A stretch of DNA of 40,588 bases from an uncultured Methanosarcinales archaeon (GCA_964647565.1 CAZYIM010000027.1:1-40588); one strand, 5' to 3'; counted from the stretch's first letter, positions 5,091 to 26,791 are shown. The notes: generated by a model not told the origin, from the letters alone. Translations and numbers: made by a program.

Positions 5091-5129
5091 CCCAAACCAT
5101 TAAATATATACCTAAATTCCCTAATCAAG

Positions 5130-9205: not shown

Positions 9206-9596
9206 ATGTAAAGCAAAGGACAGCGATTATGAATAAGTGCTCAGTCGCAAGATAACTGGTCAATAAGATGACAGGCAGCAAAGGATAGGTGAACCTGTCA
9301 ATATCCCTGGCAAACTTGAGCAGTATCAGCAATAGGATGATGGAAAGGATTCCCCAATAGCCTACTAGATAATATAGCAAGAGAGCAACAATAAGAGAAA
9401 ACAATAGCTTCTTTGCAAACAGGAAATACTTCCTTCCGTCTGCCAATTCTTCTTTTGTGAACCTGGCAATTATAGCACCCACAACAGGGCCAAGAGAAAC
9501 AACAACCACAACCAATATGAAAGTCAGTAACGGGCTCATCAAGAATTGTGAAAACAAGGCCTTTATATTTCTTACGATTACGGCAGATAGAGTCAA
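9150..9596 (-). CDS. Small polytopic membrane protein, about 4 TM helices.
   Basis: 148 aa, almost entirely hydrophobic helices. TTG start in the track, so the true start is uncertain. Confidence 0.5.
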   Translation of the reverse strand: MTLSAVIVRNIKALFSQFLMSPLLTFILVVVVVSLGPVVGAIIARFTKEELADGRKYFLFAKKLLFSLIVALLLYYLVGYWGILSIILLLILLKFARDIDRFTYPLLPVILLTSYLATEHLFIIAVLCFTYGLLSGTTFYYGRLKKKK

Positions 9597-9704
9597 GTTA
9601 GAATGTCAGATATCCAGCCATACATGGCAGCAGACGGCCTTCGGCCTGCGAGGCACCCCATAGGGTTTCCCCCGCCTCGCCTGCGCCATGTCTGGATATT
9701 ACAC
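9590..9704. other. GC-rich, highly structured 115-bp element, flanked by an 11-bp direct repeat TACGGCAGATA. Candidate small ncRNA, cis-regulatory leader or miniature inserted element.
   Basis: Intergenic between two minus-strand genes. Closing stem ATATCCAG(CCAT)ACATGG at 9610-9627 pairs with CCATGTCTGGATAT at 9686-9699. Internal hairpin GGCC-TTC-GGCC; stem GCGAGGC/GCCTCGC; CCC-ATA-GGG. The 11-mer repeat is at 9579-9589 and 9705-9715. Local GC is far above the surroundings. Confidence 0.4.
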
Positions 9705-10585
9705 TACGGCAGATACACGCCATACTTTTCCTGGGAGACCTGCATCGGTCTTTTCACAGCTTCGCAATAACCCTCAACAGGGCATTCAGCTTGCATCTTA
9801 CAGGCCATATCCCTTCTTTTGTTGCAGCCGTACTTGCTCAGGTTCCATAGCGGTTCATCAAGATCAAACTTGCTAAAACCATTCTCTATTGCAGCTTCAG
9901 ACCATAGACTGTCAATCAATTTAGCAGTATTCTTTATCTCGCTTTGGAATCCCTCGCCCTTTAGACATCCAGTATAGAAGGTTGCTCTTGCAACATGGAC
10001 ATCGACTGCTAAGGGTATGCTTTCAATATTCTTTATATTGAGCTTGCAGGAATCCTTAAGCATTCTTATCCATAATGGAAGGATCTTATCGCCAGTCAAA
10101 CATGGGAACTCCTTCCTGTAGCCTTTCATAGTATTATATATAATAGAAGCATCCAGTCCACATCCATCAACTAAAAAACCCTTCATATCACCGTCAAAAA
10201 TATCCTTTATGCTTCTTGAGATGGTCTGCCAATACTTGGCATCAAGATTATACTTTTTGGAAAGCTTATGCACCTGCAGGCCTTTGACAAGCTCTTCAAG
10301 ATTATCAGTTCTTGGAGAATCCAGGTCAAACACCCATCTGGTCTTTGGATCCTCAAAAGTCTCAACACCAGCCTTCCACAACTGCTCTGCATTCCGCATA
10401 TAATCAAGGGCAGTCACAAGAGTGAAATAATTGACATGATTCTTAGAACCTCTTATCAAACCCTTAGGCTTTGCCAATTCAGGCATATGCTCTGCTGTCT
10501 GGCCAAAGACACCTTGGGTCCTATAAGCATCCAATAAAGCCTCTGCTACCTGTTTTGCCCTTCTTTTGTCGAATTCCAAGTTCAT
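9704..10585 (-). CDS. HhH-GPD-superfamily base-excision DNA glycosylase-like protein with a C-terminal 4-Cys cluster.
   Basis: 293 aa. IPLAVDVHVARATFYTG resembles the EndoIII GPD block (IAVDTHIFRVCNRT). C-terminal CNKRRDMACKMQAECPVEGYC (C-x7-C-x5-C-x5-C) is a probable Fe-S site. Confidence 0.45.
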   Translation of the reverse strand: MNLEFDKRRAKQVAEALLDAYRTQGVFGQTAEHMPELAKPKGLIRGSKNHVNYFTLVTALDYMRNAEQLWKAGVETFEDPKTRWVFDLDSPRTDNLEELVKGLQVHKLSKKYNLDAKYWQTISRSIKDIFDGDMKGFLVDGCGLDASIIYNTMKGYRKEFPCLTGDKILPLWIRMLKDSCKLNIKNIESIPLAVDVHVARATFYTGCLKGEGFQSEIKNTAKLIDSLWSEAAIENGFSKFDLDEPLWNLSKYGCNKRRDMACKMQAECPVEGYCEAVKRPMQVSQEKYGVYLP

Positions 10586-10619
10586 AGAATAAGTAATCTC
10601 ATCTCATTATTAAGTATTT

Positions 10620-11369
10620 TCATATAGAACTCAACAAGACAACGAATATAACTCCTGCGATCAATGAGAAGATTGTCTGGTGGCTCCAGGCTTTCCTGTC
10701 CTTGGAGCAGGACATTGGAATCAATTCATCACCTGAAATGTAGATCATGATTCCTGCTGTAGCTGCCACAATCAAGCCGACAAGGGTTTTAGAGATTGAG
10801 GGGAAAAGGAAATACGCAATTAAAAAACCGATCACAGTTGGAAATGCTGTTGATGCAGACAATAAGAATGCCTTCAACCTCTTCTTGCTTACATAATAAT
10901 AAGGGGCAGATGTGCAGATGCCCTCTGGAATGTTATGCACTGCGATTGCAATGGCTATTATTATCGACAACTTGATATTTGTCACAAAACCAGAGCCTAT
11001 CGCAAGGCCTTCTGGCAGGTTGTGCATGAATATGCCTATCAGCAGATAGACAGCGGTTTTCTTAAGATTATGGCCCTGCTCCTGTTGGCAGAATTCTGGA
11101 TGCAGGTGAGGTATAAGCTTGTCAATAAGATACATGACAACAGAGCCAAGGATAATGCCAATAACGCATATATAGATTGATGATAACCTGATGCTCTCAG
11201 GGATAAGCTCAAGGAACGAAACCGACAACATAACGCCTGCAGCAAAGGCAAGCATTGCAAACATGAACTTGTCTGAAGGCTTCTTCAGAATACCTAATAA
11301 CGAGCCGATTATAGGCCCTAAAAAGCTGATCACCAGGATTATGACAATAGGATTCATAACACAAAGCAA
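10620..11369 (-). CDS. zupT: ZIP-family zinc/divalent metal transporter (ZupT-like).
   Basis: 249 aa, multi-TM. Paired signature motifs HNLPEGLAIGSGF and AVHNIPEGI, characteristic of ZupT. Confidence 0.85.
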   Translation of the reverse strand: MLCVMNPIVIILVISFLGPIIGSLLGILKKPSDKFMFAMLAFAAGVMLSVSFLELIPESIRLSSIYICVIGIILGSVVMYLIDKLIPHLHPEFCQQEQGHNLKKTAVYLLIGIFMHNLPEGLAIGSGFVTNIKLSIIIAIAIAVHNIPEGICTSAPYYYVSKKRLKAFLLSASTAFPTVIGFLIAYFLFPSISKTLVGLIVAATAGIMIYISGDELIPMSCSKDRKAWSHQTIFSLIAGVIFVVLLSSI

Positions 11370-11442
11370 CTAATCCCCTCTTTATAAAATTGTCTGTGAT
11401 GCACAAGCATTATATACTCCATTCAATTCCCTTTTCCTGACC

Positions 11443-12399
11443 ATGATAGAACTTACTTTAAGAGATAATGTTGAGAAATATATAGCCAATAACATAGACG
11501 TCTTAGAAGATCGTCTAGAAGATATTGCAGAGAGATATTTAACGCTTAAAGAGCAGAAAGACAGCTTTGACTATGGTGAGAAATTGACCAAAAAGAATCT
11601 TGATGTAATTCTACGGCCAGCAACAATAGCAGCCAAGAAAGTCTTAGGAATTGAAGAGAAATTTCCTGTTGGTGTGCATATTTTCGATCTTAAAAAAACA
11701 TCTGTTTACGGGTTAAAAGTTGGAGGTGCTATATTTGGCATTGGTATGGTCGTACGTCTTTTCGACGGTTTTCAAACTTCGGATATCTGGTACTCATTAT
11801 TAATTGCAGGCGGGATAACAGCTGTTGGAATCTTGCGCCAATTCCAGGATGATGGCAGGCCGATATTTCATAGTGATCGGAATACAATCACTTTGTCTGG
11901 GACCAATACTGTTGAAGGGTATGCAGTCCTTGCTCATGAGTTTGTCCATAGGATCCAGGAGTCTAAGACAGATCTTTCATCTCGCCTCGAAAAGCCTGGT
12001 TTAAAAGGGCCAAAGTATGTAAAAAAAGTAATAAACTGGTTTTACAACCTTAAACATATAATGAAGCCAATTGCAGAAGGCCATGCAAGGGGCGTGCAAC
12101 TGAAGGTCTGCGAGGAATACTTTGAGGAAACTGGCAATCCAACCAACTTATTCTATTCACTTGACCAAACTGCTCCTGAAATGAGACATGCCTATGAACG
12201 TGTCTGCAAGAAATATGATATCTCGAAGAAAGAGATTCCTGGTGTTGATCAGATTCCTAAGATTAAGGGCATAAGACATAAGTTAGAAAGATACCATTAT
12301 TGCATTGGTACTGCTGCCATGCAGATCGCAGAGGCAAAGCACGGCACCAAGGTCTACAGGGATGTGCTTAAGAAGGATTATTCTTTCTTGAAAATATAG
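11443..12399 (+). CDS. Hypothetical HExxH-motif protein (possible membrane-associated zinc metallopeptidase).
   Basis: 318 aa. AHEFVH motif. Hydrophobic segment VGGAIFGIGMVV...LLIAGGITAVGIL. Confidence 0.45.
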   Translation: MIELTLRDNVEKYIANNIDVLEDRLEDIAERYLTLKEQKDSFDYGEKLTKKNLDVILRPATIAAKKVLGIEEKFPVGVHIFDLKKTSVYGLKVGGAIFGIGMVVRLFDGFQTSDIWYSLLIAGGITAVGILRQFQDDGRPIFHSDRNTITLSGTNTVEGYAVLAHEFVHRIQESKTDLSSRLEKPGLKGPKYVKKVINWFYNLKHIMKPIAEGHARGVQLKVCEEYFEETGNPTNLFYSLDQTAPEMRHAYERVCKKYDISKKEIPGVDQIPKIKGIRHKLERYHYCIGTAAMQIAEAKHGTKVYRDVLKKDYSFLKI

Positions 12400-12404
12400 A
12401 AAAC

Positions 12405-12650
12405 TCACTTATACACGTTTTTTCTATGATCAAAGCAATTGACTATTATCTTGTTGTTTTCTAATCTATAAATGATCCTAAAGGGAGGGATTCTTGCACT
12501 ACGATGACCTTTGAGGCCATATTTCAAAGGTTTTCCTGATTCTGGGAGTTGTCCTAATTTTTTAATATGCTTAATCAGGTTTAATCTCATGGATTTGTCT
12601 TTAATTTTCTTAAAATCTTTTTTAAACTCTTCAGAAAATATGATCTGCAT
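12405..12650 (-). CDS. RelE/ParE-family type II toxin.
   Basis: 81 aa. GKPLKYGLKGHRSARIPPFRIIYRLENNKIIV is a RelE/ParE core. Directly downstream of the antitoxin gene. Confidence 0.7.
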   Translation of the reverse strand: MQIIFSEEFKKDFKKIKDKSMRLNLIKHIKKLGQLPESGKPLKYGLKGHRSARIPPFRIIYRLENNKIIVNCFDHRKNVYK

Positions 12651-12653
12651 TTT

Positions 12654-12938
12654 TTAGTTTATTAATAAGTCATCAATCTCTTTGTCGTTCATTTTTGTGT
12701 CAGCTTTGATGAATCTGCCTTTTTCGATATCTTCTTCGCTCTTTCTTATTTGGTCTATTAATAGCAGATCTTCTTTTAGAGATTCCTTTTTTATCTGTTT
12801 TAACAATATGTTTCCATCTTGGTTGAACACTAAAAATTGTGTTGATGGTTTTATGTCCGCATCTTTCCTGACTTCTGAAGGGATTACAACCTGCCCATTC
12901 TGGGATATTTTTGTTATTGAAACTTCCATTTGTATCAC
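12654..12938 (-). CDS. AbrB/SpoVT-like antitoxin.
   Basis: 94 aa. ISQNGQVVIPSEVRK AbrB-type N-terminus plus acidic C-terminal tail. 3-nt gap to the toxin. Confidence 0.6.
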   Translation of the reverse strand: MIQMEVSITKISQNGQVVIPSEVRKDADIKPSTQFLVFNQDGNILLKQIKKESLKEDLLLIDQIRKSEEDIEKGRFIKADTKMNDKEIDDLLIN

Positions 12939-13095
12939 CTACAATACATTTTAATATTAAAACGTATTGTATATATATATATGTTTTTCGGTTTTATAGC
13001 TTAGAAAAGTTTATTTTGCTTCTATCAATAAATTCACCAAATAGTAGTAAACTAACGACATATTTATATAAAAACATTCATTCTCTCTTGCTACA

Positions 13096-13596
13096 ATGGC
13101 ATCAGGAAATTTTATACTCGGAACGCACGCAAAAATGGAAGATTTTGTCAACTATGTTGAACCTGAATTAAAAGAAAAAGGCTGCACAGTTGTTGGCAAA
13201 AGTGTTTTTACAGAATACGAAAAAAGAGACCAACATACTTTCACAAATAACTATATCATGGTTTCTATTGTTGGTAAAGAAGACCTTGAAGAAGCTGTCA
13301 ATGACTCACTTATAGAGGCCGGCGACAAGATGCAAAAGCTAAAGGACGCCGGAGAAGAGGAACATAAGAATCTTTGGCCAGATAGCATCAGATATCGGTC
13401 CAGTACAGCAGGCAAAGATCCCGAAGCCTACTTTAAGACTGTTGAGATCTTCCCAACAGCTGATGCTGCCGGAAGACTCTTCCCAGACAGGATACAAGCA
13501 TATCTTACACTGGAACGAGAGGTCAAGATTGCCCAGATTGCAGAAAAGCTTCAGAAATTCGGAGAAGCCATGTCAGGCCTGACCAAACTAAGATAA
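13096..13596 (+). CDS. Hypothetical protein.
   Basis: 166-aa ORF, no recognised motif. Confidence 0.5.
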   Translation: MASGNFILGTHAKMEDFVNYVEPELKEKGCTVVGKSVFTEYEKRDQHTFTNNYIMVSIVGKEDLEEAVNDSLIEAGDKMQKLKDAGEEEHKNLWPDSIRYRSSTAGKDPEAYFKTVEIFPTADAAGRLFPDRIQAYLTLEREVKIAQIAEKLQKFGEAMSGLTKLR

Positions 13597-13608
13597 TTCT
13601 TTATCAAG

Positions 13609-14247
13609 CTATTTAGCTGAATATAATTCTGCAGGAATTGGCTGTGGTTGTGGGTTAGGCACTAAATAACCAACTTGTTTCTTTGCCCAACTATATGCGC
13701 TTTGCCAAAATGGCGCTTCATCTAATAATTTAGGATCAGAATCCCTTACATACATTGCAGAAGACCAGGACAATAGCCCTATGCCCAGTACTGTTTGCTG
13801 AATGCCTGCAGGCAAGGCAGAAGCATCTCCTTTAGCAAAATAATTGTATAAATTTGTAACGCCCATTCCTATTTGCGATGCAGCCCCTGCTAAAACTGGT
13901 AATCTTACAATAGAATAAATTGATTTCATCCTCTCAACAAATGGATCTTTGACTCTTGAAGAGGTTGCGAGTCCTTCTGCATGAAATGCGGCTAAGTTGT
14001 ATATAAATAGCTCAAATGTATTTTCGAGTGAAGCTCCCATTGCAATTCCATAACGTGTATAATCACGGATTTGTGAACTAATGAACCATGTAGCCATAAA
14101 AGATAATTTTGCAGCACCATTCAGGCCAGTAGCAAGGACAAATTTACCAACACCTTTTTTCTCGGCTTTACGGGCTAATTTGGTATACTCTCTTAATATC
14201 TGTTTGTCAACCCATTTCACAGGTTTTAATAAATATTCTAAACTCAT
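13609..14247 (-). CDS. Hypothetical protein.
   Basis: 212-aa ORF. Proline-rich C-terminus (PNPQPQPIP). Confidence 0.5.
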   Translation of the reverse strand: MSLEYLLKPVKWVDKQILREYTKLARKAEKKGVGKFVLATGLNGAAKLSFMATWFISSQIRDYTRYGIAMGASLENTFELFIYNLAAFHAEGLATSSRVKDPFVERMKSIYSIVRLPVLAGAASQIGMGVTNLYNYFAKGDASALPAGIQQTVLGIGLLSWSSAMYVRDSDPKLLDEAPFWQSAYSWAKKQVGYLVPNPQPQPIPAELYSAK

Positions 14248-14333
14248 ACCTAAAGGATAAAACCCATTTCTTTATAAACTTTTTTTTGTTTACTACTAGA
14301 TAGTTAATGACGCCCAGATTCTTTTTTTCACAT

Positions 14334-14663
14334 TCAGTTCGTTGAAACCTTGTTTAGAATCAGGATAAACGATGTATTCTCTTTAGCGCTCAAGGAATGC
14401 CCAGCATTTGCATCCATGAATATCAATACGCCTGGTTTCATAGGAATATCTTCACCTTCAAGAGTAAAAATCCCATCGCCTTCAATAACATAGACATATC
14501 CTGCTTTTGTTGATGTGTGCTCAGAGATCTCAGTCCCTTTTGACATGCTAAAAAGAGTCACGTCGCCGATATCATCTTTTGCAATGACCTTGCTCATTAT
14601 CCCACCAGCAGAATAATTAATCATCTCAGTTACATCTTGCCATTTGTTTTCCATTTTGTTCAC
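14334..14663 (-). CDS. Cupin-fold small protein.
   Basis: 109 aa. Beta-rich, YVYVIEGDG...KPGVLIFMDANAGHSL is consistent with the cupin_2 two-motif barrel. Confidence 0.5.
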   Translation of the reverse strand: MNKMENKWQDVTEMINYSAGGIMSKVIAKDDIGDVTLFSMSKGTEISEHTSTKAGYVYVIEGDGIFTLEGEDIPMKPGVLIFMDANAGHSLSAKENTSFILILNKVSTN

Positions 14664-14671
14664 CTTAAATA

Positions 14672-15061
14672 TTACACTATCTCCCTTAACTCTTCAAGAA
14701 AATGCTCTTTAACCCATTCAATCTCTTTCTTAAGTTTATTCTTGCCCATGCCGCTGTCAATCCTCTTGTATTCCCCGTGGCTGATGGTGCAGTTCTTCTG
14801 CCCTTTGATCTCAAACCAGGTCAGGGGATAGTTTCTTTTTGCGACAAATGCCAAATTGACGCCTTTTTTAGGAATAACGGTCATTAATATGACATCGCCT
14901 TTCGAAATAATTGCATAATTATTATCTGAAATCTTTCTAACTGTAGAATTCTTATCAAAACCCTCGATCCTGATGATCTTTTTAGGAGAATTGATCTTAC
15001 CCCACAGGTAATCCCTTGACCTGTTTGTCTTTAAACTTGACTCAATAACCTTGTACTTCAT
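14672..15061 (-). CDS. Hypothetical protein.
   Basis: 129-aa ORF immediately upstream of the cupin gene on the same strand (likely co-transcribed). Confidence 0.45.
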   Translation of the reverse strand: MKYKVIESSLKTNRSRDYLWGKINSPKKIIRIEGFDKNSTVRKISDNNYAIISKGDVILMTVIPKKGVNLAFVAKRNYPLTWFEIKGQKNCTISHGEYKRIDSGMGKNKLKKEIEWVKEHFLEELREIV

Positions 15062-15225
15062 AACTACTCAAAAGATCCTGGATATTTTTAAATGTAACGG
15101 ATATCATTCACATCTAGCTCGGATTTCTAGAAAATTATTTCAATAGATGTCAAAATCGAGAAAAAAGGCACAAAAACAAAAAGACTTATATTCTATTCCA
15201 GATTACCCTTAGTAGTGGTTTTAAA

Positions 15226-15588
15226 ATGAACAATAATGCAGCACTAATAAATATACTATCAAGTCAGGAGAATCATCCAGTAGAGGATCTATCCTCCTTA
15301 GAAATTGATCTATACAATGCCGCAGTCAAATTTGCTGAACAATTAAAATCTGAATTCAAAGGGGCTACATTTGAAGCTGTGATGCAAACAGTTCCAGGGT
15401 CCACTTGTAGAGGTATATGGATTTCAAATTTAGGAGGAACAAATTCAACAAATTATAAAGCAAGTTTAGTTTATGATGTGCGGGAGAAAAGATTGTCTTT
15501 TCCAAAGAACAGCAACACTGACAACAGGTATCAGGCGTTTATTAGTGAAAAGGTTCCAGCTTCTAAAGACTTAGTTGAGAGACTTTAA
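15226..15588 (+). CDS. Hypothetical protein.
   Basis: 120-aa ORF. Confidence 0.4.
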   Translation: MNNNAALINILSSQENHPVEDLSSLEIDLYNAAVKFAEQLKSEFKGATFEAVMQTVPGSTCRGIWISNLGGTNSTNYKASLVYDVREKRLSFPKNSNTDNRYQAFISEKVPASKDLVERL

Positions 15589-15618
15589 TCTTGCCCTTTT
15601 TTTAATTTATTATAAATT

Positions 15619-16944
15619 CTACTTAAACAATCCCTTAAAGAAATTCATAATCTTTACAAAAAGATTTGGTTTGTCATCGTACTCTTTATACTCAACCGTT
15701 AAATTCCCTTGAGAAGGTTCAGTTTCAGGAATTTCTGGTTCAATGTCTTCAGCTGATCCAATCGCATAAAGCCCGCTCCAGCTTCCAACATATATCGTGT
15801 CCTTGCCGATTGCAGGAGAAGAGGCCCAGCCTTTTACATTTGCCCTCCACTTTTCAGTTCCATGGGGATATATTGCAAAAAAGTCTGAGCCATACAGATC
15901 CTTAGAGCCCATATATATTGTCCCGTCTGCACCAATTGCAGGCGAGCAACCACCTTCATCTGGCAGAGCATAGAGCCATTTTACCTTGCCTTCAGGCGAG
16001 ACAGCATACAGGTTCTTATCATCACCTCCAATGTAGATAGTGCCATCAGCTCCAATCGCTGGAGAGCTCCAGACATCAATCGAAGGCCCTAATTGAATCC
16101 ACCATTTTTCTTTTCCATCAGAACTGACTGCGTATAATTTTCCTGCTCTTGTCGAACCAACGTAGATTGTGCCATCTTTTCCAATGGCAGGAGAAGAATC
16201 AGCGAAATCCTCAAATTCAAAAGCCCACTTTCTTTTACCTTTAGGTGTTATTGCATGCAGGTGTTTATCTCCGGATCCTATATATATTGTCCCATCATCT
16301 CCTACTGCAGCAGATGAGCATATATCGCCCCTGGTTGAATAATTCCATAATAGCTTGCCATCAGGACTTAGTGCATACAATTTACCTCGAAAATCATCAT
16401 GCGAACCAACGTAGACTGTTCCATCTTTTCCAATTGCAGGAGAATTCCAGATATCTATAGACAAATCGATCTCATAGCGCCACTTCTCTGTTCCATCAGG
16501 ATTCAGAGCAAAAAGAAGGTCGCTTTGGGATGTGAAATAGATGGTTCCATCTTTTGCAACAGCAGGAGAAGAAAGTATTCCTTTGGTTCCGCTGTATTTT
16601 GCAGTGCCGCTTTGACTATAAACCGGACCATCTCCTACCTGGAAATGCCATTTTTCACTACCATCCGGATTGATTGCATATAATACATTCTGGTGGGATC
16701 CGATGTATATTGTTCCATCAGCGCCGATTGCAGGAGATGATTCCATGCCTTTATCAGATTCAAAAACCCACTTTATCGTGCCGTCAATATGACTGGTATC
16801 ATGTGGGCTAAGACCTGTATTTTTCATATTGCCTCTCCACTTTGACCATGGAGAATCCGCAAGCTGTGCCGAGGCAAGTCCTATTGACACTAAAAAGATT
16901 ATTGCAATCAACCATCTCTTCATATCGATGACCTCTTTTGTCAA
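15619..16944 (-). CDS. Secreted PQQ-repeat (BamB-like) beta-propeller protein.
   Basis: 441 aa. Signal-peptide-like N-terminus MKRWLIAIIFLVSIGLASAQLA. About 8 repeats of the DGTIYIGS...LYA(IV).PDG.EKW pattern. Confidence 0.7.
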   Translation of the reverse strand: MTKEVIDMKRWLIAIIFLVSIGLASAQLADSPWSKWRGNMKNTGLSPHDTSHIDGTIKWVFESDKGMESSPAIGADGTIYIGSHQNVLYAINPDGSEKWHFQVGDGPVYSQSGTAKYSGTKGILSSPAVAKDGTIYFTSQSDLLFALNPDGTEKWRYEIDLSIDIWNSPAIGKDGTVYVGSHDDFRGKLYALSPDGKLLWNYSTRGDICSSAAVGDDGTIYIGSGDKHLHAITPKGKRKWAFEFEDFADSSPAIGKDGTIYVGSTRAGKLYAVSSDGKEKWWIQLGPSIDVWSSPAIGADGTIYIGGDDKNLYAVSPEGKVKWLYALPDEGGCSPAIGADGTIYMGSKDLYGSDFFAIYPHGTEKWRANVKGWASSPAIGKDTIYVGSWSGLYAIGSAEDIEPEIPETEPSQGNLTVEYKEYDDKPNLFVKIMNFFKGLFK

Positions 16945-17095
16945 TATATGGAAAGACTACTATTTAAAGTTTCTTGCTTTTATCTGTAGTGTTAATCTGG
17001 ACAAGTATTCATAGAATTTTTTATTTTTCGTTTTTTCTTAAATTATACCGGTTAATAACTCGCGTCTAGATCTCTCACTACTTTTAAAACTTCAT

Positions 17096-17464
17096 TTAAT
17101 CCTGAGTCTGTTCATTAGTTGTTGGATAGCTATCGTGGTATATTCTTCTTAGATCATACCCGCCTATAGAAGCAAAATACCATTTATTAGAATCTTTACC
17201 TCTTTCAGTTAAGATTTGAAGCGAATTTGGAAATCCACTTTTTACAGTTTCAAGAAAACATCTTTTACCAGAATAAAATTCTGCATCGCCAGCGATCATA
17301 TATCCTCCACCCCATTTAACTAAATTAATATTTCTGAATATAATTTTTTCAACTTCACCAATAACAGTGCTAGCGCCTTCTTCTACATTCAATCCATCAG
17401 GTATATGTTTTCTGATTATATCCGGACCAGCGATCCTATCATCGCACACAGTTGTTTCCCCCAT
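17096..17464 (-). CDS. Hypothetical protein.
   Basis: 122-aa ORF. Confidence 0.4.
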   Translation of the reverse strand: MGETTVCDDRIAGPDIIRKHIPDGLNVEEGASTVIGEVEKIIFRNINLVKWGGGYMIAGDAEFYSGKRCFLETVKSGFPNSLQILTERGKDSNKWYFASIGGYDLRRIYHDSYPTTNEQTQD

Positions 17465-18635: not shown

Positions 18636-19712
18636 ATGACGAAATATGAAGTTGGTCCGATCAGGCCGCCAAGCGAAGCAAGTAGTCTAATAGTTCGTGT
18701 GACAAGGAACTGTCCCTGGAATCGCTGCACTTTTTGTCCTGTCTATAAAGGCCAGGACTATGAACAAAGAGCTGTCTCTGAAGTTCTTGAGGACATTAAA
18801 AAAAACGCTCCAAGAGTACAAGCAAGTAAGCGTCCATATAAAAGTGTCTTTCTTCAGGATGCAGATCCAATGGGATTGCCAACAGCCGACTTGATACCAA
18901 TTCTAATTGAACTAAGAAAGAATTATCCTACAATCTCCAAAATAACAACCTATGCGCGAACTGCTTCTCTTATAAAAAAATCGCCTGATGAGATCAGAGA
19001 ATTGTATGAAGCTGGTCTGACAAGGATTCATCGGGGTCTTGAGACTGGATACAATCCTTTATTACGATTTGTGAAAAAAGGGACTACAGCAAAATTACAG
19101 ATAAAAGGGGGTAGGCGAGTAAAAGAGGCAGGCATGGAATTAAGCGAATATGTCATGCCGGGCTTAGCTGGAGATTTAATTTTCGATAAACAACCTGCAT
19201 GGAGAAATCATGCTATAGAGACTGCTAATGTATTAAATGAGATCAATCCAGATTTCATTCGATTAAGGACATTGTCCATTTATCCGGGAGATGTCTCGTG
19301 GAATAGGCATAAACAAGAAGGAGTCTCAAGATTGACAGATCAGGATATAGCAAAAGAGATTTATCTTTTTATTGAAAACCTGAATGGAATAACCAGTACA
19401 ATAAAAAGCGATCATAGACTAAACCTATTATGGGAATTAAGAGGTAAACTGCCTAGAGACAAAAATAAGATGCTGGCATTGATAGACCAATACCTTTCTA
19501 TGAAACCAATAGACCAATATGCTTTTAGAATTGGTGCTTTATTAGGAGGGCCAGCCACCTTAGATAGATTTGCAGCTGCTAATGGCGTTCAGCTAATCAC
19601 AGACGATACTAAACCTGCATCAGGAAAAAAAACAGAAGGCATTGAAACTGAAGAAAATGAATATGCCTCCTTAGAGAATCTTGTGCAGGCCCTTCTTACA
19701 ATGGTTGTATAA
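18636..19712 (+). CDS. Radical SAM domain protein.
   Basis: 358 aa. N-terminal VRVTRNCPWNRCTFCPVYKG Cys triad, the same C-x-W-x-[RK]-C-x-F-C pattern (C-x4-C-x2-C) as 1912..3495. Confidence 0.65.
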   Translation: MTKYEVGPIRPPSEASSLIVRVTRNCPWNRCTFCPVYKGQDYEQRAVSEVLEDIKKNAPRVQASKRPYKSVFLQDADPMGLPTADLIPILIELRKNYPTISKITTYARTASLIKKSPDEIRELYEAGLTRIHRGLETGYNPLLRFVKKGTTAKLQIKGGRRVKEAGMELSEYVMPGLAGDLIFDKQPAWRNHAIETANVLNEINPDFIRLRTLSIYPGDVSWNRHKQEGVSRLTDQDIAKEIYLFIENLNGITSTIKSDHRLNLLWELRGKLPRDKNKMLALIDQYLSMKPIDQYAFRIGALLGGPATLDRFAAANGVQLITDDTKPASGKKTEGIETEENEYASLENLVQALLTMVV

Positions 19713-19721
19713 TAGATTCTT

Positions 19722-19768
19722 TTAACCTGCTGAATGTCCTCCCCAGCCTGCTGCGCTCCTATAGCATC
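19722..19768. repeat. 47-bp perfect direct repeat, copy 1 (orphan copy of the 3' end of gene 20392..21540).
   Basis: TTAACCTGCTGAATGTCCTCCCCAGCCTGCTGCGCTCCTATAGCATC is identical to 20392-20438. Confidence 0.9.
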
Positions 19769-19839
19769 TGCTGCTTATGTAATTTTCAATATAACTGATG
19801 TTTTATTTGGAATTAAACGATGTATTACTTAGAGCATAT

Positions 19840-20088
19840 CTATACTTCCCGATAATCATGTTTCCTAAAGAGAATGTCTGCAATAATTATTTGATTTGCT
19901 TTAAGCTCATAGATTATTCGGTATTTGTTTACATGAATTGACCAATATGGATTTGCTTTAAGTTTCTTTCCGAGTGGAGCTCTTAATTCCAGCTTCTGAA
20001 TTTTCTTCCATATTTGTTTCTTTAGTATTTTATCTTCAATTTTAGAAAAAGATTTGTCAAATTGTTCACTAAAAATCAACGTATACAT
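19840..20088 (-). CDS. RelE/ParE-family type II toxin.
   Basis: 82 aa. YWSIHVNKYRIIYELKANQIIIADILFRKH is a RelE/ParE core. 1-nt gap from the upstream antitoxin. Confidence 0.65.
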   Translation of the reverse strand: MYTLIFSEQFDKSFSKIEDKILKKQIWKKIQKLELRAPLGKKLKANPYWSIHVNKYRIIYELKANQIIIADILFRKHDYREV

Positions 20089-20089
20089 T

Positions 20090-20275
20090 TTAACTTAATT
20101 TAGGATGTCTCCTCAGGAACTCAGATTTTGTTAGAAAAGGACCTTTCATTGCCTTTTTTATCTTTCTAAGCTCGTCTTTAGTTAATTCATCAGTCTCAAT
20201 GTAACGATCAAATAAGTCTGCCTTATTTTTAAGCAGATCATATTCTTCTTTTGGTATAATCATAGTTTCAGACAT
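20090..20275 (-). CDS. Putative antitoxin (small helical protein).
   Basis: 61-aa ORF immediately upstream of, and co-oriented with, the RelE gene. Confidence 0.5.
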   Translation of the reverse strand: MSETMIIPKEEYDLLKNKADLFDRYIETDELTKDELRKIKKAMKGPFLTKSEFLRRHPKLS

Positions 20276-20391
20276 TCTTTTTACCTATGTGTATTTGTAA
20301 GGGCTTTATCTATTTAAATTTATCGGGCAGGCGTTCTTGATAAAATATAGATTGGGAGCAAGTTTAAAGATGTTTAAAAAAAATCTAAAAA

Positions 20392-20438
20392 TTAACCTGC
20401 TGAATGTCCTCCCCAGCCTGCTGCGCTCCTATAGCATC
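20392..20438. repeat. 47-bp direct repeat, copy 2 (true 3' end of gene 20392..21540).
   Basis: Identical to 19722-19768. Contains the stop codon (TTA on the plus strand) and the last 15 codons. Confidence 0.9.
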
Positions 20439-21540
20439 CATCTCCATCATAAAACCCGGAGCCTGATGAACGGTATGAGCTGGAAGATGACTTTTTCTCT
20501 TTGGTTGGATCGCCCAATAACTGGGATCTGTTCAGGCCGATCCTTAGCAGTCTTTTATCATATATGCTCACTTTCTCATCTTCAAGCCTGTCATTTATGT
20601 AATTCTCAAATCCTGCTATGGTTCCTGTCTCAAATGCTGGCTTTAATAGTTTCACAGTAATCCTTCCAAGGAGATTTCTGTTTGGGATCGTAATCTTGTC
20701 CAGATGCTCTGCATCCATCCTCTTGTATTCACCAGCCAGGTCTATCTTATGCTTTTTACCATCAAAAGAGCTGTGGCTCACCACAACCAGGTCATCAATG
20801 GATTTGGCATCCAGTTCCCTGATGTGCAGTCTGTCAGGATCTATTATCTGATTAAGGGCTGATGAACCATACTCGCATTTAGCTGGATCTTTAAATTTTC
20901 GTATATAACAAAATCCTGAAGAATAGCTTACATCCAATTTTCTGACTGGGCCCTCTGAGCAGAGTTGCACTGTCTGGAGATCATACTCCCTTATGAACCT
21001 TGGCTCCTGGTTGCGGACAGGAAGTATCTTGATGTTAAAGGTGCAGTTATAGGTCTTGCTATCCCTGCCATCACTAATGATCCTGTCTGTAGAATCTCTA
21101 TAAGACTCATACCAGCTCTTTTTAGATTGATAGTCATCTGATGCCCAATAGTCTTTCTTCTTTTCCATCTTATGCAGTTGCTTGGATAGAATATCCCTTT
21201 TTTTCTCATATTTCAAAAACAATTCTGTCTCCTCTCTGGTTAGGTTGGAGTATTTCATCCTTTCATCCTTCCAGATCTTGGCAGATAAAGCAAACCTATA
21301 ATCCTCTGTCTGGCCCATCATTGCCTCAAGAAGGATATGTGTGCCATATCCAGGGAACTTATAGTTCAGCTTTTCAAGCAGATAGACATTGTGATTGTGA
21401 TATGCACCTTTCTTGGCAGTATTAATGGCTGAACTGATGAAATTATCATGGTCAAACAATTTGTTCCTAAAATAGTCAAATTTTCCTTTTTTCATTTTTT
21501 CTACCTCTGAAAGTTGTTTTCTTTTGGACTGCCTCAGCAA
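20392..21540 (-). CDS. Hypothetical protein with Ser/Gly-rich C-terminal tail (…SSSSSYRSSGSGFYDGDGCYRSAAGWGGHSAG).
   Basis: 382-aa ORF. No recognised domain. Confidence 0.55.
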   Translation of the reverse strand: MLRQSKRKQLSEVEKMKKGKFDYFRNKLFDHDNFISSAINTAKKGAYHNHNVYLLEKLNYKFPGYGTHILLEAMMGQTEDYRFALSAKIWKDERMKYSNLTREETELFLKYEKKRDILSKQLHKMEKKKDYWASDDYQSKKSWYESYRDSTDRIISDGRDSKTYNCTFNIKILPVRNQEPRFIREYDLQTVQLCSEGPVRKLDVSYSSGFCYIRKFKDPAKCEYGSSALNQIIDPDRLHIRELDAKSIDDLVVVSHSSFDGKKHKIDLAGEYKRMDAEHLDKITIPNRNLLGRITVKLLKPAFETGTIAGFENYINDRLEDEKVSIYDKRLLRIGLNRSQLLGDPTKEKKSSSSSYRSSGSGFYDGDGCYRSAAGWGGHSAG

Positions 21541-21575
21541 TCTTTGATTGCTCTTACCTCAGTGTACTTTGTTAC

Positions 21576-22832
21576 TCAGGACCTCATCTTTATTGCTTTG
21601 AATCCCAGGAGTTCATACCTATCTGAATTCCTTGAGGCATGGATCAGGGCTGTAAGGGTTGTCTCATAATCCACCCTCTGGTCTGAATTTTTCATATTGG
21701 CCACCAGTCTTATCCCTAAAGCGCCCATCTCTAACATTGCATGAGGAGCCCAGGCGTCTTCTCTTCTTCCCTTTGTCTTAGCATAAAGCTGGGTCTGAAT
21801 CTGATTCAGGGACCAGGGCTTGGATGGCCAGCGGGAGTCATCCATGACCTTGCCTTCATGGTCAAACTTCAACTGGGCCCTGGGGCAGTCTTCAAAGCCT
21901 TCAAAGCCCCTGATTATCTTAAGCTCGAATGCTGGTTTGTAACTATACTCTTTCTTAGGATTTATCCTGTAGTGAAGTTCAGCTTCTTTGTAGTCGCCGC
22001 GCATAAGAATGTAGTTAAATGCAAGTTCCTCAATGATGCCGGGGTTTCTGCTGTCAATGACTGCCTTGTAGTCAAATATGATCTCTCCGTAAGCATCAGT
22101 CACTTTTCTTTCTGCGCTGACAGAGTACCAAGAATGGCCGCTCTCGTTTAGGTTCCCTGAGTCTACATCTGGTATTATTTCCAATTCCTTAAGCACGAAT
22201 CCGTCAAGGTCAATTCCGCTGAATCTTTCTTTCGCAGGGATGATCTCCAGGGGCAATTCTTCAACAAACCGTCCTTTTTCGATTTGTTGATCCTGATATT
22301 TGTTCTCTGCTTCTTTATGATCAAGATATTGCCTTAAAGCAGGTCCGCTGACATTCTTCTTTGGAGTTTTTTCAATAGGTACAACCATATCCAGATGATG
22401 CTCCAGATGATAGTGTTCGTCATAGCCGCATGGAGGCCTGGCATTGGTATTTGCTTTAAGAAAAGCACTGGATTCAAGGTCCAAAGGCACTACAAATACC
22501 AGATAGTCATCAGAACTTCCAAACCTGGTACTCATCAACTGGCCATGTTTAGCGCCAGCTGTAATAAGCTTCTCATGCAATGGCATAGCACTATAGAACA
22601 AATCAGGCTTGGATTTGCTGTTAATCTTTTTATACATCTTTTTTGCGTTTTTAAGCTTTCTTTGATAAGCTCCAATCAGATCTGTTGTGACGCCAACATC
22701 AAAATAATAAAAATCTGTGTTCTCAATTCCACTTATTCTTCTTGTTTTCAATAGTTCATTTAAACTCATTTCAATCACAAAATATGTTACTCTCCAGTAA
22801 TAGATAAATATTGTTGTTGATTTTTCCATCAA
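21576..22832 (-). CDS. Hypothetical protein.
   Basis: 418-aa ORF directly upstream of, and co-oriented with, 20392..21540. No recognised domain. Confidence 0.55.
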   Translation of the reverse strand: MMEKSTTIFIYYWRVTYFVIEMSLNELLKTRRISGIENTDFYYFDVGVTTDLIGAYQRKLKNAKKMYKKINSKSKPDLFYSAMPLHEKLITAGAKHGQLMSTRFGSSDDYLVFVVPLDLESSAFLKANTNARPPCGYDEHYHLEHHLDMVVPIEKTPKKNVSGPALRQYLDHKEAENKYQDQQIEKGRFVEELPLEIIPAKERFSGIDLDGFVLKELEIIPDVDSGNLNESGHSWYSVSAERKVTDAYGEIIFDYKAVIDSRNPGIIEELAFNYILMRGDYKEAELHYRINPKKEYSYKPAFELKIIRGFEGFEDCPRAQLKFDHEGKVMDDSRWPSKPWSLNQIQTQLYAKTKGRREDAWAPHAMLEMGALGIRLVANMKNSDQRVDYETTLTALIHASRNSDRYELLGFKAIKMRS

Positions 22833-22873
22833 AAACGGAAAAATTTATTAATAACTAAGAAAATGATGTAAAT

Positions 22874-23830
22874 ATGCAACTAGATGTGCTGGATAAAAAG
22901 ATCTTGAATCAGCTCAACCAAAAGCCAAGGGCGAGCTTCTCAGAGATTGCCAAGAAAGCAAGGGCATCCAAGGAGATTGTGAACTACAGGGTTAGCAGGC
23001 TAAAAAAGGAGGGCATAATAAAAGAATTTGTGACCATCTTTGGCCTGGGCTACTGGGCATATAAGGTGCTTATAGATTTTAGCCAGATAGATGTTGAAAA
23101 AGAAAAGAAAATCCTGGAATACCTGACTAATCATCCCAATGCCAACTGGGTGACATCGTGCTCTGGAGGCTGGGACCTGGTCTTTGCAGTCATGGTAAAG
23201 GACCCTGAGCACTTTGATAAGGTGTTAAGGCAGATAATGGGCAAGCTGGGCAAGCATGTAAGGGAGTATAAGGTGGCAACCAGCATCGGCTCCCAGACAT
23301 TCGGCCATACATACATCCTGGGCCGGGTCAAAGAGCCTGAGAAGATACAGAGAAAGAAAAAAGAGTTTGATTTTGATGAAAAAGACAAACAGATTGCCAG
23401 GATACTGCATAAGAATGCAAGAGCTCACTTGATGGAGATCTCAACCCAGACAGGCATCCCAGTTGACACAGTCAACTACAGGATAAAGAAGATGGAGCAG
23501 AACTCGATCATCAAGAGATACCGGATGATATTAAACCCTTCTGTATTGGGCTATCATCGGTACGAGATATTCATCAGATGCATCAACCTGACTGATCCGA
23601 TAATATCCAAATTCAGGGAATACGCAAAACAGAATAAACACATAGAATACTTCAGCAGGTGCGTGGGCAGCTGGGATATTGAATTGACTGTACATTTCAA
23701 GACCAGCGATGAGCTGAGAAAATTTATCCTGGAAGTCAAACAAAATTTCGGCGAAAACATACAGAAATTCGAGACAATAACACTCTTTGAAACACTTAAC
23801 TATGTCTACTTCCCAGAGGAGTTTGTTTAA
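22874..23830 (+). CDS. Tandem (single-chain double) Lrp/AsnC-family transcriptional regulator.
   Basis: 318 aa containing two HTH+RAM modules: DKKILNQLNQKPRASFSEIAKKARASKEIVNYRVSRLKKEGII and DKQIARILHKNARAHLMEISTQTGIPVDTVNYRIKKMEQNSII. Confidence 0.7.
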   Translation: MQLDVLDKKILNQLNQKPRASFSEIAKKARASKEIVNYRVSRLKKEGIIKEFVTIFGLGYWAYKVLIDFSQIDVEKEKKILEYLTNHPNANWVTSCSGGWDLVFAVMVKDPEHFDKVLRQIMGKLGKHVREYKVATSIGSQTFGHTYILGRVKEPEKIQRKKKEFDFDEKDKQIARILHKNARAHLMEISTQTGIPVDTVNYRIKKMEQNSIIKRYRMILNPSVLGYHRYEIFIRCINLTDPIISKFREYAKQNKHIEYFSRCVGSWDIELTVHFKTSDELRKFILEVKQNFGENIQKFETITLFETLNYVYFPEEFV

Positions 23831-24006
23831 AGGGTTTGTCCTCACCTCTGCAGAAGAGAGTTCCGTCCTTTGAACATACTCAGAAATGAAACAGTTCTGG
23901 TATGCTTAGCAACGCAGTTGCTGGCACACCGGAAACACAGCTTCCTTGTGTCCTAGAAATCTTAATTTCTATGATATAGTCTGCTTTACAGGATTAATTA
24001 AAAGAA

Positions 24007-24369
24007 TTATGCTGCTGAAGCAATTAAGGGACTCTTAAAATTAGCATTGGCAAATGCTGGTAATTTTTCCTTGATCACTTCATTATTATGCTTAAATATC
24101 AGAGTAACAATAAAATAATTTCGATAATTTATTACATCCAACTCAACCTCAGTTATACCTTCCAACATATCTTTTGAAATTTTATCATTAACAGTATGTA
24201 AGAATTCAAATGCATCAATTAACTCCAAATTAACTAATTGTTTATTTTTGTCTATATCAATAACTAGATCTTCAGATACTTCAATACTTTCTTTAACATT
24301 TTTTGCAGACCTATAAATAGTTAAAACATCCCCATCTGGATCATATGAAGCACTAAATTTCTCAGTCAT
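24007..24369 (-). CDS. DUF2283-like small protein (antitoxin-like partner of DUF4258 toxins).
   Basis: 120 aa. YDPDGDVLTIY...IEVSEDLVIDIDKNKQLVNLELIDA matches the DUF2283 pattern (YDxExDxLYI...GIEIL). Confidence 0.4.
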   Translation of the reverse strand: MTEKFSASYDPDGDVLTIYRSAKNVKESIEVSEDLVIDIDKNKQLVNLELIDAFEFLHTVNDKISKDMLEGITEVELDVINYRNYFIVTLIFKHNNEVIKEKLPAFANANFKSPLIASAA

Positions 24370-24391
24370 AATAATCTCTAAATACTCCGGG

Positions 24392-24655
24392 TTATTTAAA
24401 TCTTTTCCTATATTTAGTAATTGTCGTTCTTCCTAGTGGAAAAACAGTAATAACTTTAATATTTGAATTAAAAGTTAAAATAAAACATCTGCCTTTAGAT
24501 CCTGAGAAAATGTGATAACACCTATATCTTGTTTCTTTTTTACCTTGAAAATCTACTTCTTGTTTCGCTACAAAAACCAAATCTGTAGAATCGTGAATTT
24601 CAGTTTTCAAATCTTGGATAGTACTTTTATTCCTTTTTTCTAACCAACTTATCAA
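24392..24655 (-). CDS. Small hypothetical protein (possible DUF4258-like toxin partner).
   Basis: 87-aa ORF immediately upstream of the DUF2283-like gene. C-terminal ...IKVITVFP resembles DUF4258. Confidence 0.35.
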   Translation of the reverse strand: MISWLEKRNKSTIQDLKTEIHDSTDLVFVAKQEVDFQGKKETRYRCYHIFSGSKGRCFILTFNSNIKVITVFPLGRTTITKYRKRFK

Positions 24656-24850
24656 TTTAATCTTAGTAAATTTAATATCGGATAATTGATATTTTTTTAA
24701 TTTATCCTTAATAAATTTTGACCAATCATCTATGATGAAACATAGAGCAGATACTCAAGTATATAAACATTCCCCAATAAACCTTGTTCTTTTTACTAGG
24801 GTAGATAGAACAAAACTCCCCCTTTATATAAAATACAAAAGAAGTCTTAG

Positions 24851-24905
24851 GTGCTGATCAGATCTTTTTTCTATAATGAAATGCGTATTCATCAAAGTCA
24901 TAGCT
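24851..24905. repeat. 55-bp direct repeat (51 bp perfect plus GTG with 1 mismatch), copy A (orphan copy of the 3' end of GNAT gene 26744..27181).
   Basis: TGATCAGATCTTTTTTCTATAATGAAATGCGTATTCATCAAAGTCATAGCT is identical to 26741-26791. On the minus strand it encodes SYDFDEYAFHYRKKI-stop. Confidence 0.9.
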
Positions 24906-26736
24906 TACATTCCTGGACATGTTTGCACATAAACAAAACAATGTCTCGTTTAATGGGTGCTAAGTTCAATAAGATTTGGAGTCCTAAAAAGATAAAGGGG
25001 TCTGGAAATTTTAGATAAATTCTTAAATAGATAGTTCTCTTTTGTTCATAACATGAATCCAATATTATCAGAAGTAAAATACGTTGTTGAAAATTCAGAA
25101 CACGTCAAAATTAATGTTGATGCCATAAAAACAGTTGTAGATGGTTTTTCCCCTGAAGATAAAGTTCCTTGGACTGACATTCTTCCATTTAAACCACAGA
25201 ATCTAACTAAAAAAGAAAGAATTGCTTTTAATTTTGTATTTAATGCAATTAATTTTTCATATTGGGGAAATCCAAAATGGACAATCAAATACCAAGATAA
25301 AGAATTAGATGGTTCTTGGGCAATGATTGGCTCAATTCATCGTGCGATTGAAGAAGGTTATGATATTTTGAATCCAAAATATCTGATAAATATTAGTGAG
25401 GAAAATTTTGATCATATTTTTCGAGGAAACGTAAAAGTTCCACTTTTTAATGAGAGATTAGAAATCCTTCGAAAACTTGGAAAAATAATATGTTCTGATT
25501 TTAATGATGATTTTGAAAATGTTTTAATAGAATCTAATTATGAATCTGAGAAACTGCTCAATATAATTACTTCTAAATTTGATTTTTTTAATGACTATTC
25601 CCTGTACAAAAATAAAAAAGTGCATTTTCATAAAAGAGCCCAATTACTAATTGGAGATATTTATGAATTATTGCTGGAATTCAAGCAAGAAAGCATAAAA
25701 AACATAAATTTTTTGACTGCTTTTGCTGATTACAAAATACCTCAGATTCTAAGAAAACTTAATGTCTTGGAATATTCTAAAGAGTTAGAAAATTTAATTG
25801 GTAATAAAATAGAGATGGAATCTGGAAATCCGATGGAAGTAGAAATAAGAGCAAATATGATATGGGCAATTGAATTAATTAAAGAAGAAATAAACAAAAA
25901 ATATCCTGAAATTAATTCAATGAATATAGATCACTATTTGTGGATTCTTTCACAAGATAAAAAGAAAGATGATAAACCATATCACCTAACAAGAACTATT
26001 AATTATTAAAAAATTGCAATTTTACTCAGAATTTCTGGCGCAGAGTTTATAAATTAAGCTGAATTCCCCTTGTTTATGGGAATTGATTTTTCAGAATTGC
26101 CTTGGGAAGATCTTGAAGTTGAAGATCATGATTGGCCTGGAGGAAAGTCCATTAAATGGTTGTCTGGCAGAGTAACTATTAATGAATATGGTTATGATAT
26201 AACGGATCGTGTTGAATTATATATACTTCCTGATGGAATTGAATACTTAGCACAACATCCTCAAGCTCTTAATAGTTGGTTAAATGAGGATTTTTTTTGT
26301 CAGAAGAAAAATATCGAGGTCCAACAGCTCTAAGAGGCAGGTATGTTCAACAACTAACTCTAGATGGAGAGGTATTTGCACAAAAAACTTATGGAAATAA
26401 TGATGTCGAAAGCGCATTTAAACAAGCAGGTTTCTATCGAAAATTAGATGAACAACTAGACCCCAGTAATGTAAGAATTCCCAAATTATTCTTTGCTCTG
26501 GAACGGAGATTATTAATGGAACCCTTGTTTGGTTTTCCCAATATTGAGGATCTAAGAATAAAAAGTGGTTCTGATCAAGATATCCTGGCCTTTTTTGACA
26601 AACAAGAAAAACCAGACAAACCTTTAGTTGAAGAAGATGGAATCTACGTACTAAAAGGCAATCCTATTGAAAAATCAGAGTTTATATTGACTGATCCGAG
26701 AGTTAATAACGCTAAAAATTCTTCCAGCATACTAAA
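24906..26736. mobile_element. Very AT-rich (about 27% GC) inserted island bounded by the 55-bp direct repeats. Carries Qng1-like gene plus a frameshifted gene. No integrase inside.
   Basis: Bounded by the direct repeats. Strong compositional contrast with flanks (about 45-50% GC at 33.3 kb). Confidence 0.45.
25053..26009 (+). CDS. Qng1/DUF2419-family queuosine salvage protein (queuosine 5'-phosphate N-glycosylase/hydrolase-like).
   Basis: 318 aa. Blocks AFNFVFNAINFSYW, HKRAQLLIGDIY, AFADYKIPQIL, MEVEIRANMIWAIELIK and IDHYLW align to conserved blocks of Qng1 (…NFSFW…YKRAQILVADTW…MFADYRLPQVL…QEVEIRGCSLWCVELIR…LDYYLW). Confidence 0.75.
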   Translation: MNPILSEVKYVVENSEHVKINVDAIKTVVDGFSPEDKVPWTDILPFKPQNLTKKERIAFNFVFNAINFSYWGNPKWTIKYQDKELDGSWAMIGSIHRAIEEGYDILNPKYLINISEENFDHIFRGNVKVPLFNERLEILRKLGKIICSDFNDDFENVLIESNYESEKLLNIITSKFDFFNDYSLYKNKKVHFHKRAQLLIGDIYELLLEFKQESIKNINFLTAFADYKIPQILRKLNVLEYSKELENLIGNKIEMESGNPMEVEIRANMIWAIELIKEEINKKYPEINSMNIDHYLWILSQDKKKDDKPYHLTRTINY

Positions 26737-26743
26737 GTGTTGA
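26070..26743 (+). pseudogene. Hypothetical gene split into two ORFs (26070..26333 and 26297..26743) at a T8 homopolymer (26291-26298). Frameshifted, slippage-prone, or a sequencing error.
   Basis: Two overlapping ORFs in different frames switch exactly at TTTTTTTT. The second ORF has no ATG (TTG only). Confidence 0.35.
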
Positions 26744-26791
26744 TCAGATCTTTTTTCTATAATGAAATGCGTATTCATCAAAGTCATAGCT
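26737..26791. repeat. 55-bp direct repeat, copy B (true 3' end of the GNAT gene).
   Basis: Matches 24851-24905. Confidence 0.9.

Follow-up and report, generated by a model that had tools for sequence, protein, structure and literature searches.

In Thaumarchaeota, 14 of 68 integrated mobile genetic elements (iMGEs) occupy the 3′-distal parts of protein-coding genes (Krupovic et al. 2019, PMC6563490), and some provide the target gene with an alternative stop codon (PMC6563490). The attachment (att) repeats of the thaumarchaeal elements are 8 to >25 bp long, and those in Crenarchaeota are 29–69 bp (PMC6563490). Elements that have kept attL and attR and lost their integrase form a defined class, the cis-mobilizable elements (CIMEs) (PMC5704250); in Streptococcus thermophilus, both CIMEs and tandem accretion are described for the 3′ end of fda (Pavlovic et al. 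2004, reviewed in PMC5704250). Degenerate, integrase-less elements are likewise scattered through the tycheposon islands of Prochlorococcus (bioRxiv 10.1101/2020.12.28.424599). Here, we analyze a 40,588-nt stretch of DNA assigned to an uncultured Methanosarcinales archaeon (GCA_964647565.1, CAZYIM010000027.1:1-40588; hereafter, the window). It contains a toxin-antitoxin cassette and an island with a queuosine-salvage gene (Qng1), each lying between direct repeats, one copy of which forms the 3′ end of a protein-coding gene. A first-pass annotation of the window had described three such gene-end duplications, of 11, 47, and 55 bp (direct repeats DR1, DR2, and DR3, defining cases 1, 2, and 3). 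All three are present where it had placed them; DR2 and DR3 are statistically significant, and DR1 occurs at chance level.

Case 2 is a 623-bp cassette (19769..20391, minus strand) flanked by two copies of DR2 that match at all 47 positions; neither copy is assigned a strand. A convergent radical-SAM gene (18636..19712, plus strand) has its stop codon 9 nt away from the gene-distal, attL-like copy (19722..19768). The gene-proximal, attR-like copy (20392..20438) consists of the stop codon and the last 44 coding nucleotides of a 382-aa open reading frame (ORF) on the minus strand (20392..21540), which is the target gene. This copy has its start at the stop codon's last base (the codon reads TAA on the gene strand and TTA on the plus strand) and encodes the final 14 residues of the protein, whose C-terminus reads CYRSAAGWGGHSAG. 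Sequence flanking the two copies is unrelated, with 2 of 12 positions matching on each side. When the cassette and one copy of DR2 were deleted in silico, the stop codons of the radical-SAM gene and the 382-aa ORF came to lie 9 nt apart. The target gene has no detectable homologue outside this population: a search of 5.8 billion protein clusters returned the protein itself and nothing else, and Pfam, PHROG, NCBIfam, and PDB returned no match.

The cargo of case 2 consists of a ParE/RelE-type toxin gene (19840..20088, minus strand; Pfam ParE_toxin PF05016, 2.3e-8; PHROG RelE-like toxin phrog_1213, 4.5e-11) and a 61-aa antitoxin gene (20090..20275, minus strand) that ends 1 nt before the toxin start and has its own upstream region. 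This is the arrangement of a type II toxin-antitoxin system, in which a small antitoxin gene comes before the gene for a small ParE/RelE-fold toxin in one operon, and we assign the cassette to that class from its predicted products.

Case 3 is a 1.83-kb island (24906..26736, plus strand) that carries the Qng1 gene (25053..26009, plus strand; Pfam Q_salvage, 1.6e-79) and a 222-aa orphan ORF. Its target gene encodes a GNAT acetyltransferase (26744..27181, minus strand; Pfam Acetyltransf_1, 4.9e-16). The gene-proximal, attR-like copy of DR3 (26737..26791, no strand) spans the last 15 GNAT codons, the stop codon, and 7 nt downstream, and the convergent ORF of the island overlaps it with its stop codon. 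The gene-distal, attL-like copy (24851..24905, no strand) is identical to it at 54 of 55 positions, with an exact core of 51 nt and a weaker extension back to position 24846. Over this extension, the similarity continues for a further 12 nt at 9/12 identity (24846–24857 compared with 26732–26743). Such an extension fits diverged att arms of shared ancestry and argues against a target-site duplication produced by fill-in. Deleting the island and one copy of DR3 in silico placed the GNAT stop codon about 200 nt upstream of the next gene. The gene junctions obtained in this way in cases 2 and 3 are compact and plausible, which argues for insertion.

The 222-aa ORF of the island is split in the window by a run of eight T residues (26283–26290) into frames of 87 and 148 aa (26070..26333 and 26297..26743, plus strand). 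The same T8 run is found in the related contigs L002–L004, and contigs L001 and L109 have nine T residues and thus an intact ORF; the difference reflects either polymorphism in the population or slippage in sequencing. The DNA to the left of the gene-distal DR3 copy was considered as a homologue of the C-terminus of this ORF and was rejected, as the alignment stops beyond the last 3–4 residues. GC content is low on both sides of the unit formed by the island and the GNAT gene (27% at 24000–24845 and 34% at 27200–29900). The stretch from about 24 to 30 kb may as a whole represent an older variable island with the Qng1 islet nested inside it; no repeats delimiting it were found.

By self-BLAST, no dispersed repeats in the window other than DR2 and DR3 were significant (E = 2e-17 and 4e-20, respectively), and second-order Markov simulations never produced anything comparable. 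The cargo also differs in composition from its surroundings. The GC content of the toxin-antitoxin cassette is 28.9% and that of the Qng1 island 30.3%, compared with 38.4% for the window and 36–42% for the target genes. Composition thus supports insertion of the bracketed DNA in cases 2 and 3.

On balance, we favor the interpretation that cases 2 and 3 are integrase-less islets that integrated at the 3′ ends of protein-coding genes through att-type repeats, probably independently of one another, and that the presence of DR1 is coincidental. This interpretation is preferred because the repeats are sharp, near-identical blocks of 47–55 bp, the 3′ end of the gene is regenerated, and the cargo is foreign in composition. 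The likeness to integrase att-site logic that the first-pass annotation had noted holds for these two cases. In such a process, an incoming circular DNA would carry about 50 bp identical to the target gene's end; a crossover within this block of identity would insert the cargo and duplicate the block as attL and attR, and the host ORF would thereby retain an intact C-terminus and stop codon. As with other integrated elements of archaea and bacteria, the enzyme would most likely be a tyrosine integrase, encoded outside the islets and outside these 40 kb. Because the enzyme is absent from both, the islets would either have decayed or depend on an integrase provided in trans, as CIMEs do. The two insertions, which lie at different sites, would represent probably independent events. 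The recombinase-mediated mechanism, the circular intermediate, and the independence of the two events are what we infer here.

Compared with described archaeal iMGEs, cases 2 and 3 share the flanking att repeats, one of them at the end of a gene that stays functional, and their repeat lengths fall within the archaeal range (PMC6563490). They differ from the thaumarchaeal elements in size and content: those span several kb to >100 kb and encode their own integrase, whereas the islets here measure 0.6 and 1.8 kb and contain cargo only. Integration of the thaumarchaeal elements was also verified through empty sites in sister genomes, whereas here it is proposed from repeats and composition. The resemblance to CIMEs lies in the flanking attL and attR, situated where a protein-coding gene ends, in the absence of integration and transfer genes, and in the potential for excision by an integrase supplied from elsewhere. 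CIMEs, however, are bacterial and descend from integrative and conjugative elements or integrative and mobilizable elements; here, the host appears to be a Woesearchaeota-like archaeon with no known parent element. A further similarity is to tycheposon islands, where a marine, streamlined genome likewise has cargo modules bracketed by incomplete copies of the integration target. In contrast to the arrangement here, tycheposons target seven tRNA or tmRNA genes, and intact ones carry replication modules as well as a tyrosine recombinase. Cases 2 and 3 are unusual only in being so small and in having no integration genes at all.

No recombinase, transposase, or Cas1 was recognizable in any ORF of the window by Pfam, PHROGs, NCBIfam, or PDB sequence searches, in agreement with the first-pass annotation, which had reported no recombinase in the 40 kb. 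The window contains about ten orphan ORFs of 200–500 aa that had no match in Pfam, PHROGs, or NCBIfam; six of these were also checked against PDB sequences and were unmatched there. They lie in the regions 4191–5993, 11443–12399, 13609–14247, 20392–22832, 28635–29828, 34681–37683, and 39130–40152. When 10 orphan ORFs were searched with PHROGs, NCBIfam, and PDB sequences, and small and edge ORFs were examined as well, no concealed recombinase came to light. One of these roughly ten sizeable, complete-orphan ORFs could encode an enzyme that is not recognizable by such methods.

Excision or tandem duplication of the toxin-antitoxin cassette is hinted at by a single contig. European Nucleotide Archive (ENA) contig L012 (SCRA20-1_SAMN11854493 scaffold_241434; 641 nt) carries a junction that reads through positions 1–61. 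It starts with the 7 nt that follow the gene-distal DR2 copy inside the cassette (19769–19775), continues through DR2, and then enters the cassette from its other end (20391). This order is the one expected of an excised circle or a tandem copy, for which the predicted junction is TCTAAAAA followed by DR2 and TGCTGCTT; the predicted empty-site junction is TAATAGATTCTT followed by DR2 and CATCTCCATCAT. At 7 + 47 = 54 nt, the overhang matches k − 1 for an assembly graph built with k = 55, and this suggests that the reads of that sample contain a genuine branch. In three independent assemblies (L009, L010, and L011), contigs break at window positions 20164–20182, inside the antitoxin gene, and L012 ends at 19805. 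In L009 (1027–1060), a different sequence, AAACTTGGGTTTA, joins at about window position 20164. The core formed by the toxin and the antitoxin C-terminus may therefore be present in a second genomic context or allele.

Near-identical contigs were found in several marine metagenome assemblies from the Joint Genome Institute (JGI) and ENA. The insertions were occupied in all of the approximately 20 such contigs, which were retrieved through flanking or cargo proteins. The first-pass annotation had called the integration active and had proposed comparing strains for presence/absence polymorphism. That comparison yielded contigs that were uniformly occupied, and wider relatives were not syntenic and so gave no empty-site contrast. 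The word "active" thus finds no backing in occupied/empty polymorphism among these contigs, and the contig end of L012 is the sole hint of it. An empty site could not be found because the 382-aa gene has no homologue outside this population and the GNAT homologues lie elsewhere and have no duplication: those homologues (75% identity and below) occupy non-syntenic neighborhoods and lack a duplicated 3′ end. A scan of genome contigs with the neighboring radical-SAM protein gave a best match of 45% identity, in Desulfobacterales, with no synteny. A pattern search combining DR2 and a 115-bp element described below, which gave three matches in the window, gave none in a metagenome-contig set, an uninformative zero because that set evidently lacks even the JGI contigs that carry DR2 (L008). 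Scans of viral contigs with the core of the 115-bp element, DR2, DR3, the 222-aa protein, Qng1, and the variant junction of L009 returned no match.

The host has no close sequenced relative and is probably a DPANN-type, Woesearchaeota-like archaeon, judging from homologues: the best named matches of two housekeeping-type genes are Woesearchaeota proteins with 54–68% identity.

Several points weigh against att-type integration in cases 2 and 3. Neither the islets nor the whole 40-kb window encodes a recognizable integrase or other recombinase. None of the near-identical contigs has an empty site, and no relative is near enough for comparison, since the 382-aa gene is an orphan and the best homologues of the GNAT protein (75% identity) and of the case 1 target, an AGOG-like protein (55%), are both non-syntenic. 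Low GC content persists to the left of the gene-distal DR3 copy (24000–24845), and no third att copy bounds this low-GC stretch. The circle or tandem junction depends on 7 nt at a single contig end. Finally, the role of selection in the coincidence of repeat borders with stop codons, discussed below, is something we infer.

The strongest competitor, which we nevertheless consider unlikely, is a Campbell-type integration, in which a circular DNA, perhaps excised or captured from a related strain, carried about 50 bp of the gene end by chance and was inserted by a single RadA/RecA-dependent crossover with no site-specific enzyme. General homologous recombination of a circular fragment would leave an identical scar and is a legitimate rival. 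It agrees with the lack of a recombinase in the window and with the unrelated sequences of DR2 and DR3. An identity of 47–55 bp would be long enough for homologous recombination, given minimal homology lengths. The extension of DR3 at 75% identity would suit a donor from a diverged relative, and the junction in L012 is equally obtainable by homologous recombination between the repeats. On the other hand, the borders of DR2 are very sharp and start exactly at the stop codon, and they look selected or site-defined, unlike those of a random piece of homology. In addition, the 382-aa target gene is an orphan, so the donor of its 3′ end would have to come from the same lineage.

We also considered the islets as minimal, cargo-only cassettes that an unrecognized recombinase acting in trans inserts and excises at the last codons of genes in a DPANN host, with L012 as a trace of this activity and the 115-bp element as the smallest member. 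We regard this as improbable. A related proposal, that all three cases stem from one uncharacterized trans-acting cassette-capture system that places cargo right after stop codons, was the suggestion of the first-pass annotation; it is not supported by our results, and we rate it as slightly less probable again. The outer borders of three repeats within 17 kb all fall 0–7 nt away from a stop codon, in each case that of a minus-strand gene; none of the cargo encodes a recombinase, L012 hints at a circular or tandem form, and the many orphan genes in the window could conceal an unknown enzyme. Nevertheless, DR1, DR2, and DR3 have no sequence in common, and no motif is shared by the element ends in the three cases. 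The repeat lengths cover a fivefold range (11, 47, and 55 bp), the GC content of the cargo is opposite (57% vs 29–30%), and DR1 is no more than expected by chance. Such repeats are also missing from two further ParE toxin-antitoxin pairs of the window, and the repeats of the three cases have no attC-like structures.

The clustering of repeat borders at stop codons, which had suggested a targeting rule, does not require a dedicated enzyme: it is the pattern that selection for intact genes would give. Ordinary att logic combined with such selection would account for it fully (PMC6563490).

Integron cassettes and clusters of attC sites lacking integron-integrases (CALINs) offer a partial parallel to this proposal. 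Like the islets, they are small, promoter-poor or self-contained modules that often encode toxin-antitoxin systems or acetyltransferases, have no internal recombinase, and rely on an integrase acting in trans. Unlike them, the islets have no attC palindromes at their ends, no IntI, and no common repeat family. We found no inverted repeat at the gene-distal copy of DR2 and only short, AT-rich ones at the other repeats, and neither IntI nor another tyrosine recombinase that would allow assignment to integrons was found in the window. Insertion into an integron does not duplicate 47–55 bp of a neighboring ORF.

Long target-site duplications, made by staggered cuts of a transposase or casposase-like enzyme 47–55 nt apart (11 nt in case 1) and subsequent repair, are a very unlikely source of the repeats. 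The complete identity and sharp borders of DR2 would fit this model, as would the resemblance of the case 1 element to a miniature inverted-repeat transposable element (MITE), with sub-terminal inverted repeats and an 11-bp flanking repeat. However, terminal inverted repeats of the toxin-antitoxin cassette and the Qng1 island scored 11 and 10, respectively, vs a null median of 10, and neither a transposase nor Cas1 was found in the window. Fill-in would also not yield the diverged extension of DR3. The inverted repeats of the case 1 element lie 19 and 6 nt from DR1 and are not flush with it, and the element is single-copy in the sequence available. None of the three cases thus has the terminal inverted repeats flush with a fixed-length duplication that characterize DDE transposons, MITEs, and casposons. 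An assembly artefact, in which repeat-induced misjoins made the duplications, can be dismissed with near certainty: the repeat lengths (47 and 55) are close to common k-mer sizes and several contigs break within the toxin-antitoxin cassette, but the same structure recurs in independent JGI, ENA, and NCBI assemblies, including several ENA samples and one JGI assembly that is 100% identical over 14.5 kb.

If att-type integration is correct, cases 2 and 3 would add further examples of a well-known process, in which an element integrates at a gene's 3′ end and that end is regenerated. These examples would come from a poorly sampled, probably DPANN lineage whose mobile elements are little documented, and they would show toxin-antitoxin and salvage genes arriving in very small, att-flanked units. 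Their practical use is modest: the exact junction sequences can be searched for in raw reads of the source metagenomes to assess excision and occupancy. A new cassette system would be at issue only if a common, non-canonical enzyme turned up. No third, degenerate att copy that would mark tandem accretion scored above the null.

Case 1 is a possible insertion. It comprises a GC-rich, structured element of 115 bp (9590..9704, read on the plus strand; 57% GC) between two 11-nt copies of DR1, TACGGCAGATA, at 9579..9589 and 9705..9715 (no strand). The right copy covers 2 nt of the stop codon and the last three codons (YLP) of an AGOG-like N-glycosylase/DNA lyase gene (9704..10585, minus strand). 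Together with the preceding base, the two DR1 copies read TTA and CTA on the plus strand, that is, TAA and TAG on the gene strand. The window contains nine exact 11-nt repeats spaced ≤200 nt apart, compared with a simulated mean of 3.3 and a maximum of 8. Because such repeats are common in the window, DR1 is not significant by itself and provides no evidence of insertion alone.

The core of the 115-bp element (9609–9698; 63% GC) is predicted to form a long stem that closes a junction with two hairpins. The element folds at −51.4 kcal/mol (z = −3.07 on the plus strand and −1.66 on the minus strand) and holds the second most GC-rich 90-mer of the window. Its inverted repeat scored 19, vs a null 95% value of 15, and is sub-terminal. 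No Rfam match was obtained for the element at gathering thresholds, with noise only at E values up to 10, and ARAGORN found no tRNA or tmRNA in it. Neither the rest of the window nor about 118 kb of related loci contains a second copy of the element, and a covariance model of the 115 nt, run on the window and on Woesearchaeota-like loci, matched only the element itself.

The homologues of the AGOG-like protein (≤55% identity, with PF09171) are named Woesearchaeota N-glycosylase/DNA lyase, and the alignment extends to the C-terminus. In Woesearchaeota relatives, the gene after AGOG overlaps the AGOG stop codon and is not homologous to the neighbor in the window. In silico deletion of the element and one copy of DR1 placed the AGOG stop codon 38 nt from the next start codon, with a TATA-like box suitably spaced. 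This box, AAATATAAA (the reverse complement of 9561–9570), has its center about 27 nt upstream from the start codon (ATG, 9539) of a gene for a 129-aa membrane protein, and the left copy of DR1 lies directly upstream of it. The spacing suggests a leaderless transcript for the membrane-protein gene. Most likely, the 115-bp element is resident, either as a structured RNA or DNA element or as a terminator-like sequence of the AGOG 3′ region, and DR1 is coincidental; a very small third insertion is possible.

Beyond these loci, the window is densely packed with toxin-antitoxin and defense-type genes. Two more MazE-ParE pairs are located at 3611–4119 (plus strand) and 12405–12938 (minus strand), without flanking gene-end duplications. 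The same holds for a DUF2283 pair (24007–24655), a HEPN/nucleotidyltransferase pair (27257–28296), and AbiTii (793–1701), all on the minus strand, none of which has a gene-end duplication. Palindromes at 12940–12971 and 28275–28318, upstream of two of the toxin-antitoxin or defense operons, are probably operators. No rRNA, tRNA, or Rfam match was found in the window. Its GC peak (72%, 34688–34780) is a GGAGGCGGAGGC-type low-complexity repeat in the 3′ part of a 506-aa orphan ORF (34681..36201). Vault proteins are regarded as eukaryotic. A 790-aa ORF at 29918–32290 (minus strand) matches major vault protein domains (MVP_shoulder, 3.9e-28; Vault_3; Vault_4) on what appears to be an archaeal contig of Woesearchaeota type, and a prokaryotic vault homologue may merit separate study.

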